Assembly: GCF_039939235.1 (NCBI RefSeq)
Contig: NZ_JBDUUF010000012.1
Span: forward strand, 83,774-147,773
Origin: Gordonia sp. B21
GTDB taxonomy: Bacteria > Actinomycetota > Actinomycetes > Mycobacteriales > Mycobacteriaceae
DNA: 64,000 bases
Direction of reading: 5' to 3'
Shown one piece after another: positions 43,283-44,676 of the stretch. Position numbers and translations under genes: made by a program. The notes beneath the pieces were generated by a model, which did no database searches, was not told the DNA's origin, and saw only the letters and a program-made list of their open reading frames with translations. Positions within the stretch are counted from its first letter, which is position 1; the number at the start of each line of letters is the position of its first letter.

Positions 43283-43888
43283 ATGTTCGTCATGACCGTC
43301 GACCAGCGCGGGAGCCGTAAGGACGTCGACCGCGTCGACGCCCTGCTGTCCGGGCTCTCCGCCGTCGACACCGTGCGGCGGTTCGAGCGGACCGCCGGCG
43401 ACGAGGTCCAGGGCGTCCTCGACGACCCGACGGTGTGCGCGCAGCTCGCGGTCGAGTTGACCGCGAACGGGCACTGGAGCGTCGGGATCGGCACCGGTGA
43501 CGTCGAGCGGCCGCTCCCCGACTCCACCCGCGCCGGCCGCGGGCCCGCGTTCATACACGCGCGCGACGCGGTCGAGGCGGCCAAACGCCAACGCATCCCG
43601 CTGTGTGTCCGCGGACCCGACACCCGCTGGTGCCGTCACGCCCAGACGGCCGGGCGGCTCATCGCCGACGTGGTCGCCGGTCGCAGCGAGGCCGGCGTCG
43701 AGGCGGTGACGTTGATGCGCCGGGGACTGACCCAGGCCGAGGCGGCCGAACGCCTGGGCATCTCTCCGCAGGCCATGAGCCAGCGGCTGCGCGCGGCGGG
43801 ATGGGACCTCGAGGCCGATTCCCTCGACCTGCTGGCCGACGCCCTGGCCGAAGCCGACCGCGCCACCACCTCGGGAGCGACACGATGA
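43283..43888 (+). CDS. SatD-family-like protein fused to a C-terminal sigma-70 region-4-type HTH
   Basis: N-terminal VMTVDQRGSRK...GDEVQGVLDD...WSVGIGTGDV (recalled SatD-family pattern). The C-terminal LTQAEAAERLGISPQAMSQRLRAAG is HTH-like. Confidence 0.5.
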   Translation: MFVMTVDQRGSRKDVDRVDALLSGLSAVDTVRRFERTAGDEVQGVLDDPTVCAQLAVELTANGHWSVGIGTGDVERPLPDSTRAGRGPAFIHARDAVEAAKRQRIPLCVRGPDTRWCRHAQTAGRLIADVVAGRSEAGVEAVTLMRRGLTQAEAAERLGISPQAMSQRLRAAGWDLEADSLDLLADALAEADRATTSGATR

Positions 43889-44556
43889 CCGTCTCCGCCC
43901 TCACCCTGTTCGTGCTCACCGCGCTCGCGCCGGTGGTGTGGTTCGGGGCGGATCGGGCCGCCCACGGCCGGACGGTCTTCGGGTTCTCCGAGACCGCGAC
44001 CCTGCTGCGCGGCGTCGGCCTGGCGCTGCTGCTGGGTCTCGCCGCGGCGACCGCGATCGTCGCGACCGCAGCCGGACCGGTGGCCGGGTTCTGGGCGCAC
44101 ACCGCGCCGGTGATCGCGGCCGTGGCCGCGGTGACCGGTGGCGGACCGATCGTGCGCGCGGTGCTGAGGTTCGGCGGGGTGCGACCGACCCCTGCGGCAC
44201 GCCCGGGAGAGAGCCGGAGCGGCGCCGACGAGAACGGTGCAAGCGAGAACGGCGACGCCGCCGCGGACCCCGGCGACGACCACGCCGATGCCGGCACGGA
44301 CGAGGGCACGCCGAGTATCGAGGCCGGTCCCCTGCGCGGCGGCCGGGTCATCGGCTACCTGGAACGCCTCGCGGTCGTGTCGACGTTGATGGCGTCGTGG
44401 CCCGAAGGACTTGCGATCATCCTCGCCGTCAAGGGCCTCGCGCGTTATCCCGAGCTGCGTGCGCCGCAGGCGTCGGAGCAGTTCATCATGGGCACCTTCG
44501 TGTCGGTCCTGTGGGCGATCGGCATGGCCGGCGTCGAGCACCTGCTCACCCACTGA
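43885..44556 (+). CDS. DUF3307-like polytopic membrane protein (partner of the SatD-like gene; ATGA overlap)
   Basis: About 5-6 TM helices with an acidic ~45-aa loop (DENGASENGDAAADPGDDHADAGTDEG). Start re-placed at ATG 43885, overlapping the upstream TGA. Confidence 0.5.
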   Translation: MTVSALTLFVLTALAPVVWFGADRAAHGRTVFGFSETATLLRGVGLALLLGLAAATAIVATAAGPVAGFWAHTAPVIAAVAAVTGGGPIVRAVLRFGGVRPTPAARPGESRSGADENGASENGDAAADPGDDHADAGTDEGTPSIEAGPLRGGRVIGYLERLAVVSTLMASWPEGLAIILAVKGLARYPELRAPQASEQFIMGTFVSVLWAIGMAGVEHLLTH

Positions 44557-44564
44557 CCCGTCCG

Positions 44565-44600
44565 TGCACCGAGCACCCGAGCACCCGAGCACCCGAGCAC
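44565..44600. repeat. short tandem repeat, 8-bp unit (CGAGCACC) x4
   Basis: Direct reading: caccgagcacccgagcacccgagcacccgagcacc, followed by a duplicated AATCGCAGG motif. Confidence 0.5.
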
Positions 44601-44676
44601 CCCAAAATCGCAGGTTGAGCGCAGAATCGCAGGCCGGAACCCGCGATTGGGCGGGTGAACTCGCGATCCTGTGCGG

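Follow-up and report, generated by a model that had tools for sequence, protein, structure and literature searches.

The closest described relatives of the gene pair reported here are satC and satD, which have carried these names since 2001 in the sat ('secretion and acid tolerance') operon of Streptococcus mutans (Kremer et al., cited in PMC11323703). The SatD/SatC cassette has been named and never mechanistically studied, and the literature library that could be searched yielded no description of the SatD fold, the partner module or operators; DUF3307 (PF11750), a Pfam domain of some SatD-linked membrane proteins, turned up only in an unrelated phage context. In Streptococcus pyogenes, satD was the single 'essential accessory gene' detected by transposon sequencing (PMC11323703). 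Here, two overlapping open reading frames (ORFs), ORF-A and ORF-B, were examined in a 64,000-nucleotide stretch of the genome of Gordonia sp. B21 (contig NZ_JBDUUF010000012.1, positions 83,774 to 147,773 of the forward strand), referred to as the window. The pair is the Mycobacteriales version of a widespread two-gene cassette of the SatD/SatC type, and is a divergent member of a known family rather than a new kind of system. An earlier note on this DNA had credited the pair with no described function, which is fair for the function, but the pair is not undescribed given the 2001 names cited in PMC11323703.

ORF-A and ORF-B share with the SatD family and its SatC-type partners full-length homology of the SatD protein over palm and HTH (helix-turn-helix), the conserved motifs, an adjacent and usually overlapping gene for a module-carrying membrane protein, and the type of palindrome array found upstream. 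They differ in that ORF-A scores below the Pfam threshold (21.2 versus 29 bits), ORF-B lacks DUF3307 and has instead an unrelated N-terminus of three transmembrane (TM) helices plus an acidic linker, and the pair occupies a core syntenic locus of the Mycobacteriales. The DUF3307 proteins linked to SatD in Halorientalis and Fusobacterium have the same C-terminal module of about 75 amino acids (aa) as ORF-B, but the Pfam domain is their N-terminal half (LGHVLGDFAFQ in Halorientalis), which has no counterpart in ORF-B.

Three other kinds of system resemble the pair in part. The beta-alpha-beta-beta-alpha-beta fold of class III cyclase, GGDEF and mCpol palms is present in ORF-A, which nevertheless has no Pfam or PDB sequence match to them, lacks a recognisable dimerisation arm and base-specificity residues, and joins a palm of putative catalytic function to a helix-turn-helix (HTH). 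Regulators of the PucR/CdaR type (Rv2242, BAD_0249) and cyclase-domain regulators (PDB 6yii) follow the same logic, with a cyclase/GGDEF-like input module and a DNA-binding part, and Foldseek alignments to Rv2242 and BAD_0249 spanned about 230 columns (probability 0.57–0.82) with template modelling (TM) scores of 0.23–0.27. In contrast to these regulators, ORF-A has no GGDEF_2 (PF17853), reaches 15.9 bits on HTH_30 (PF13556) against a cut-off of 27, is much smaller and has a dedicated membrane partner. Pairs of extracytoplasmic function (ECF) sigma and anti-sigma factors share the sigma-4-like HTH, the downstream membrane partner with a 4-bp overlap and the logic of an autoregulated operon. 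However, the N-terminus of ORF-A is a palm and not sigma-2 (TIGR02937, 14.5 bits against a cut-off of 42.9), its candidate operators are palindromic, suggesting binding as a dimer and not within RNA polymerase, and ORF-B has no anti-sigma domain. The pair thus appears to work somewhat like a PucR-type regulator or a sigma/anti-sigma pair and folds like a cyclase, but by sequence belongs to none of the three.

A SatD-family protein with a palm domain and an HTH

Both ORFs are present as the earlier note had described them, with an ATGA in which the stop codon of ORF-A overlaps the start codon of ORF-B by 4 bp (Table 1). ORF-A had 2682 homologues and ORF-B at least 287, both proteins being matched at 100% in Gordonia aurantiaca. 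An ORF-B profile retrieved 3301 representatives (50% clustering, E≤1e-3). The neighbourhood of ORF-A homologues was compared in 80 related loci, all from Mycobacteriales (Gordonia, Williamsia, Rhodococcus, Prescottella, Hoyosella, Antrihabitans, Speluncibacter and others). ORF-A and ORF-B are real genes. Their pairing is not due to chance, because an ORF-B homologue lies directly 3' of the ORF-A homologue on the same strand in 79 of the 80 (1 truncated). The 4-bp overlap was found in 55 of the partner-bearing loci. The co-conservation of the two genes, which the earlier note had proposed to check, is borne out. In Gordonia lacunae, the partner has been lost 3' of the SatD-like gene and unrelated, AT-richer sequence is found there instead, while in Speluncibacter jeojiensis a remnant of the partner consists of the last ~50 codons of the module only.

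The best Pfam match of ORF-A was SatD (PF16264; E 2.6e-4, 21.2 bits, profile positions 38–111 of 211), below the gathering threshold of 29 bits. The same model matched 53 of 85 close ORF-A homologues at E≤0.01, the best at 1.6e-7. When the ORF-A family profile was aligned using hhalign with the SatD protein of a Halorientalis plasmid, a bona fide reference that scores 112.6 bits on Pfam SatD, the probability was 98.6% (E 6.1e-16) over residues 1–173, and tblastn gave 27% identity (E 4e-5). From these profile comparisons, ORF-A is a divergent, full-length SatD-family protein. The SatD-like assignment in the earlier note is in keeping with this, but the 'fusion' of a SatD-like domain to an HTH is simply the standard SatD architecture, because the hhalign alignment covers the N-terminal domain and the HTH together; bona fide members likewise align to the 211 positions of the Pfam model over both palm and HTH.

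In a 10-way alignment of SatD proteins that covers Archaea and four bacterial phyla, with members from haloarchaea, Alphaproteobacteria, Fusobacterium and Actinobacteria, S11, D40, E41, G87 and A93 (ORF-A numbering) were invariant, and D7, G39, Q43, G70 and R94 were at least 90% conserved. The family-wide patterns D-x3-S, G-D-E-[FVI]-Q-G, G-I-G and G-x5-A-R are all found in ORF-A, and the hairpin reads G-D-E-F in most lineages of the alignment. The motifs quoted in the earlier note were located at G10-S-R12, G39-D-E-V-Q-G-V45 and G68-I-G-T-G-D-V74, and the conserved palm residues of ORF-A are D7, S11, R12, G39-D40-E41-V-Q43, G68-I-G70 and G87...A93-R94.

An AlphaFold2 model of ORF-A (predicted local distance difference test score, pLDDT, 94.7; predicted TM score, pTM, 0.89) placed these residues in a small palm, and Foldseek matched the palm to Rv1900c, Ma1120 and Rv1264 with probabilities of 0.97–1.0, in agreement with the guess in the earlier note that the domain resembles a cyclase palm. 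A Pfam scan of ORF-A and its homologues gave no Guanylate_cyc or GGDEF match, and a PDB sequence search with the ORF-A profile returned HTH-local matches only and no cyclase at E≤1. The catalytic core of class III cyclases and GGDEF proteins comprises an Asp on beta1, an acidic beta2–beta3 hairpin and an Arg on the following helix. Going by secondary structure in the model, D7, D40/E41 and R94 would be placed like this core.

The C-terminal part of ORF-A is predicted to be an all-helical DNA-binding domain. Foldseek matched the HTH to the sigma-4 domain of SigL in complex with RslA (probability 0.95–0.97, 25–32% identity), consistent with the sigma-70 region-4-type HTH seen by the earlier note; by sequence several HTH families tie, all below threshold (Sigma70_r4_2 20.9 bits, MarR_2 21.2, HTH_3 20.2). 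Q163, A164, S166, R168 and L169 in the recognition helix are invariant. The poorly conserved C-terminal tail (..LADALAEADRA..) contains two direct copies of a 12-bp repeat, CTGGCCGAAGCC (43832–43855), which is probably a slippage duplication.

Two unusual homologues were seen. In a metagenomic SatD-like protein of 280 aa, the palm domain is tandemly duplicated ahead of the HTH; such an arrangement would mimic a covalent palm dimer and fits functionally relevant dimerisation. A replicon of Arthrobacter sp. StoSoilB13 carries an orphan SatD-like gene with no downstream partner, in which D7 is replaced by N and AGDE by VEDE, so that in this single case loss of the partner coincides with decay of the catalytic-type residues.

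The membrane partner and its conserved module

ORF-B had no Pfam or NCBIfam assignment. The AlphaFold2 model (pLDDT 84, pTM 0.77) has six helices (residues 2–27, 35–62, 69–96, 152–169, 173–186 and 194–222) and a disordered loop at 97–151 (pLDDT 45–55) with 12 D/E versus 4 K/R, so the '5–6 TM protein with a long acidic loop' of the earlier note holds. Loops 1, 3 and 5 contain 3, 7 and 3 K+R, respectively, and the remaining loops none. By the positive-inside rule, ORF-B would be a six-TM protein with its N-terminus outside, and the acidic linker would face the cytoplasm, as would the two conserved charged motifs. The linker varies from ~10 to ~60 residues among ORF-B homologues. In the C-terminal module, G153, G157, E160, R161, K183, R187, F200, G203 and S207 were invariant in 93 representatives, and the overall pattern is G-x2-I-G-x-L-E-R, two TM helices, K-x3-R-[YF]-x-E-L, ...G-T-x2-S and a final TM helix.

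The earlier note had called ORF-B DUF3307-like, and this did not stand. DUF3307 was unmatched in ORF-B at E≤1, and no match was found at E≤0.01 in the 93 family members scanned, which comprise ORF-B and 92 relatives; positive controls from Halorientalis (59.9 bits), Fusobacterium (58.6) and phage RsoM2USA (38.4) were all matched. ORF-B resembles only the C-terminal, unmodelled module of DUF3307 proteins. On the Halorientalis plasmid, the gene for a SatD family protein is followed, with a 4-bp overlap, by one for a DUF3307 domain-containing protein in which the Pfam domain covers residues 15–115. In the hhalign comparison, residues 73–218 of ORF-B aligned to residues 146–248 of this protein (97.6%, E 3.8e-12) and the N-terminal part of ORF-B was unaligned.

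The ORF-B profile was also compared with the ORF found directly 3' of distant SatD genes. The partners of SatD in Tsukamurella (E 1.8e-48), Halorientalis (E 4.8e-19), a pAt plasmid of Agrobacterium (E 1.9e-17), Fusobacterium (E 2.3e-14) and Natronosalvus (E 1.2e-3) matched via positions ~106–181 of the hidden Markov model, corresponding to the module, only. DUF3307 was present in the partners from Halorientalis and Fusobacterium and not in those from Agrobacterium, Natronosalvus, Tsukamurella or Gordonia. Of the 10 distant SatD loci, nine have a module-carrying ORF directly after SatD. A profile built on the module alone matched 2607 protein clusters, mostly 130–180 aa long and without a Pfam domain, and PF11750 was present in 3 of the 120 clusters listed. 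For module-only proteins of Sphingomonas, Hoeflea, Fusobacterium animalis and Sulfitobacter, a PF16264 gene precedes the module gene in each of the four cases looked up. Because the distant partners match via the module only and few have DUF3307, the constant partner of SatD is the unmodelled ~75-aa C-terminal module and not DUF3307. The N-terminal half of the partner is interchangeable, and can be DUF3307, an unrelated three-TM region as in ORF-B, or little at all.

In F. animalis, a gene for an IS605/OrfB protein (Cas12f-like TnpB) is inserted between the SatD gene and the module-only partner. In F. vincentii, SatD and its partner are contiguous and the partner retains the DUF3307 N-terminal half, so the 148-aa partner in F. 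animalis may be a truncated remnant. The cassette on the Agrobacterium pAt plasmid adjoins DUF4365, antitoxin and HEPN/nucleotidyltransferase genes, and that of Sphingomonas parapaucimobilis adjoins genes for a GH108 endolysin and a three-TM holin of the gene transfer agent (GTA) type. These accessory-looking contexts outside the Actinobacteria hint at a conflict- or lysis-related role of the membrane module.

Palindromes upstream of ORF-A and the surrounding region

The 75 nt before ORF-A are AT-rich and contain three imperfect palindromes of 20 bp, each with 7-bp arms and a 6-bp spacer (Table 1), which are candidate operators for the ORF-A HTH and lie outside the coordinates given in the earlier note. 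Three clustered sites matching TCAAG-N8-CTTGA with at most one mismatch lie before ORF-A, against 0.46 expected in the whole window. Among the 80 loci, the consensus gTCAAGc-N6-gCTTGAc was found at 176 sites between -160 and 0 relative to the ORF-A start, in 77 loci, against five in the ~650 kb outside these regions. Left arms are most frequent at -77, -49 and -21 and right arms at -64, -36 and -8, giving a period of 28 bp.

A sigma-A-type promoter appears to be buried in the second and third palindromes, with TTGATA at -35 to -30 and TAGCCT at -12 to -7 relative to the A of the ORF-A ATG. A scan for the sigma-70 consensus made no call at the locus because TAGCCT matches TATAAT at only 3 of 6 positions. 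TANNNT was found at exactly -12 to -7 in 36 of 80 sequences (79 loci and the window); 35 of these additionally carry, at -35 to -30, a hexamer that matches TTGACA in at least 4 of 6 positions. Such a position of the -10 element relative to the ATG would imply that the ORF-A mRNA is leaderless. In the remaining loci the same array is followed by a short leader with GGAGG.

Similar palindromes with other half-sites precede distant SatD genes. GTTCG-N10-CGAAC was found four times in Halorientalis, spaced 29 bp within each of two pairs and 47 bp between the pairs, and TACAACC-N6-GGTTGTA twice in Natronosalvus, 29 bp apart. In Hoeflea, TTRACCC-N6-GGGYYAA was found three times at 28-bp spacing, and in Tsukamurella GCAAG-N8-CTTGC was found twice (at -50 and -21), 29 bp apart. 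Sphingomonas, Sulfitobacter and Agrobacterium have similar pairs, two sites each, at 28-bp spacing. The recurrence of the 7-6-7 geometry with lineage-specific half-sites implies autoregulation. SatD would bind its own promoter as an array of dimers, most simply as a repressor, because it is the only factor common to the distant loci that share the geometry.

The AT-rich stretch (43205–43282, in a genome of ~68% GC) extends over the 3' end of the upstream VTT/DedA gene, about 15 codons plus the stop codon (43249–43251), and the putative -35 of ORF-A overlaps that stop codon. Constraints from the operator array, and not the function of the VTT protein, therefore probably shape its C-terminal tail (..DNQDSNLDQSSQKA). 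Isolated one-mismatch TCAAG-N8-CTTGA sites were also found at 18323, 29991, 38806 and 54794 in the window, with GC-rich spacers and no array; three of the four are within long ORFs of high GC content at third codon positions, and that at 54794 is in no flagged ORF. These four exceed the 0.46 sites expected in the whole window from shuffled sequence, and are probably chance matches, given their GC-rich spacers and the lack of an array. A metagenome-wide scan for GTCAAGC-N6-GCTTGAC as a route to a regulon was also set aside, as chance matches dominate (120 matches, one beside a SatD gene).

The VTT/DedA gene is found upstream in 73 of the 80 loci and a convergent SPFH gene downstream in 48, and an NfeD gene is additionally present at the Tsukamurella locus. 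The Mycobacteriales pair is a core syntenic chromosomal locus, outside any mobile island. A PADLOC scan found no defence-system match; ORF-B had no match at all, and ORF-A only two that were local to the HTH (E~0.01). Beyond the SPFH gene is an ars-like cluster, in which the arsenate reductase has an N-terminal phosphatase-like domain. The true starts of the permease and reductase ORFs are probably further downstream, because the listed starts overlap the upstream genes heavily.

ORF-B and the convergent SPFH gene are separated by a spacer that ends at 44676 and contains repeats, which the earlier note had reported and which are indeed present. An 8-bp sequence, CCGAGCAC, is repeated 4.2 times at 44569–44602 (100% match), CA[AG]AATCGCAGG is found at 44603 and 44622, and GAAC[CT]CGCGAT is found twice in inverted orientation. 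Neither the 8-mer repeat nor AATCGCAGG was found in the 3' regions of any of 79 related loci, the RNA fold of the spacer was no better than that of shuffled sequence (z-score -0.01), and neither an Rfam family at E≤1 nor a terminator was found. A functional role in the system was rejected on these grounds, and the repeats are lineage-specific spacer sequence.

Table 1. Features in and around the ORF-A/ORF-B locus (positions in the window)
Feature	Position	Strand	Remarks
Methylmalonyl-CoA mutase	40324–42300	-	Pfam, 355 bits
VTT/DedA-type membrane protein	42445–43251	+	Pfam
Three 20-bp 7-6-7 imperfect palindromes	43211–43280		candidate operators for the ORF-A HTH
Op1	43211–43230		atcaaga-ttcaaa-ccttgat
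Op2	43233–43252		atccagc-caaaag-gcttgat
Op3	43261–43280		ttcaagt-ctttag-ccttgag
Putative sigma-A-type promoter	43248–43276	+	-35 TTGATA 43248–43253, 17-nt spacer, -10 TAGCCT 43271–43276
ORF-A	43283–43888	+	ATG start, 201 aa
Predicted minimal nucleotide-cyclase/GGDEF-type palm domain, ORF-A residues 1–112	43283–43618	+	beta-alpha-beta-beta-alpha-beta-alpha-beta
Predicted all-helical DNA-binding domain, ORF-A residues 113–201 and stop	43619–43888	+	HTH at ~147–172 (TQAEAAERLGISPQAMSQRLRAAGW), sigma-70 region-4-like
ORF-B	43885–44556	+	ATG start, 223 aa
Three N-terminal TM helices, ORF-B residues 1–96	43885–44172	+	poorly conserved, Mycobacteriales-specific, not DUF3307
Disordered acidic linker, ORF-B residues 97–148	44173–44328	+	predicted cytoplasmic
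Conserved SatD-partner module, ORF-B residues 149–223 and stop	44329–44556	+	PLRGGRVIGYLER - TM - TM - KGLARYPELR...EQFIMGTFVSVLW - TM
Repeats in convergent spacer, ORF-B to SPFH gene	44569–44667		form imperfect inverted repeats
SPFH/Band-7 protein	44677–45540	-	Pfam
ars-like cluster: ArsR HTH_5, SBF/ACR3-type permease, low-molecular-weight-phosphatase-type arsenate reductase	45615–47753	+	Pfam

Possible mechanism and alternatives

We consider it somewhat probable (roughly 0.55) that the pair encodes an autorepressing one-component regulator with a nucleotide-binding and/or dimerising palm, coupled to membrane state via its partner. ORF-A would be a one-component transcription factor whose N-terminal palm probably has NTP-Mg2+ (NTP, nucleoside triphosphate) or some other nucleotide as its ligand and, in the manner of such palms, brings about dimerisation. 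The sigma-4-like HTH of ORF-A would bind as dimers to the array of 20-bp 7-6-7 palindromes, and ORF-A would repress its own ORF-A/ORF-B operon because the occupied palindromes span both the -35 and -10 elements and the start site of the putative leaderless promoter. ORF-B, a predicted six-TM membrane protein whose translation would be coupled to that of ORF-A, would present the invariant charged motifs G-x2-IG-x-LER and K-x3-R-Y/F-x-EL of its module to the cytoplasm. This face may be where ORF-B contacts or signals to ORF-A, linking it to a membrane-associated state; ORF-B may either sequester ORF-A or release it, in the way that anti-sigma factors act on sigma-4 domains. A membrane-tethered sensor with a DNA-binding partner, the arrangement put forward in the earlier note, is plausible on this account. 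The essentiality of satD in S. pyogenes would fit a repressor in whose absence a harmful partner is expressed.

Several points weigh against an autorepressing regulator with a nucleotide-binding palm. Op1 and Op2 are 22 bp apart in the window, not 28. The half-site patterns at the distant SatD genes were derived post hoc from the same sequences, so that an 'expected 0.00' overstates their significance. The partnerless Arthrobacter homologue, with its degenerate motifs, indicates that the palm can be non-catalytic and that the protein can act alone. The palindromes may be the sites of another regulator, and their right arms in part double as ordinary -35 elements (TTGAC). Finally, the strong conservation of the D, GDE and R residues suggests catalysis rather than mere binding, which favours a cassette that generates a signal.

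In such a signal-generating cassette, the SatD palm would be an active minimal nucleotide cyclase or oligonucleotide synthase and the membrane module its receptor or effector, acting as a nucleotide-gated pore, toxin or transducer, while the HTH provides tight, toxin–antitoxin-like autorepression. It would resemble mCpol-OptE (Panoptes) or the cyclase–effector pairs of cyclic-oligonucleotide-based antiphage signalling systems (CBASS). Besides the strict conservation of catalytic-type residues, the status of satD in S. pyogenes would be typical of a repressor or antitoxin that guards against a harmful partner. On the other hand, neither protein had a PADLOC match, the Mycobacteriales locus is core and syntenic with VTT/DedA and SPFH genes rather than part of a mobile island, and ORF-B shows no recognisable SAVED, CARF or cyclic nucleotide monophosphate-binding domain. 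In addition, at the position of the class III cyclase Asn, four residues ahead of the Arg, ORF-A appears to have Phe. Taken together, we regard signal generation as possible but unlikely. A bolder form of it, which is speculative and which we likewise doubt, would make SatD an active minimal nucleotide cyclase or polymerase joined to a repressor domain of its own, autorepressed via periodic palindromic operators, with the ~75-aa module as its nucleotide-responsive effector. SatD and its partner would then be an unrecognised nucleotide-signalling or toxin–antitoxin-like cassette of Archaea and at least four bacterial phyla, domesticated in the Mycobacteriales as a core membrane-homeostasis locus.

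The palm could also be a dimerisation domain or scaffold without a nucleotide ligand, with an anti-sigma-like partner that keeps the HTH at the membrane until envelope stress releases it, for instance the acid or membrane stress suggested by the 'secretion and acid tolerance' name in S. mutans. This pure sequestration switch draws on the structural likeness of the HTH to SigL sigma-4 bound to the anti-sigma factor RslA, on a 4-bp-overlapping downstream membrane gene that mirrors the organisation of ECF sigma and anti-sigma genes, on the membrane-homeostasis genes nearby (VTT/DedA, SPFH, NfeD) and on the degenerate palm motifs of the Arthrobacter homologue. However, a mere scaffold would not readily account for S11, D40, E41 and R94 being invariant across very distant lineages, ORF-A cannot act as a sigma factor without a sigma-2 domain, and no anti-sigma domain is recognisable in ORF-B, which makes this reading rather improbable. 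We consider it very improbable that some other regulator binds the palindromes, or that they are mere reiterated promoter elements, and that ORF-A has its targets elsewhere or none. Their right arms do contain the -35-like TTGAC, but the arms are symmetric, with the left TCAAG at -21, -49 and -77, positions at which one would not look for a promoter element, and the same geometry with other half-sites is found in a haloarchaeal plasmid, alphaproteobacteria and actinobacteria that share only SatD.

SatD and its partner form a very widespread cassette, which has had a name since 2001 and no mechanism; partner clusters number at least 2600 and SatD-like clusters ~2700, from Archaea and several bacterial phyla. 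The Gordonia pair provides new handles on it, namely a palm with catalytic-type residues, 7-6-7 palindromes ~28–29 bp apart over a putative leaderless promoter, and an unmodelled membrane module. If the palm is enzymatic, SatD would be a new family in the nucleotide second-messenger or conflict-system repertoire, and if it is not, the cassette would represent a new class of membrane-coupled one-component regulator.

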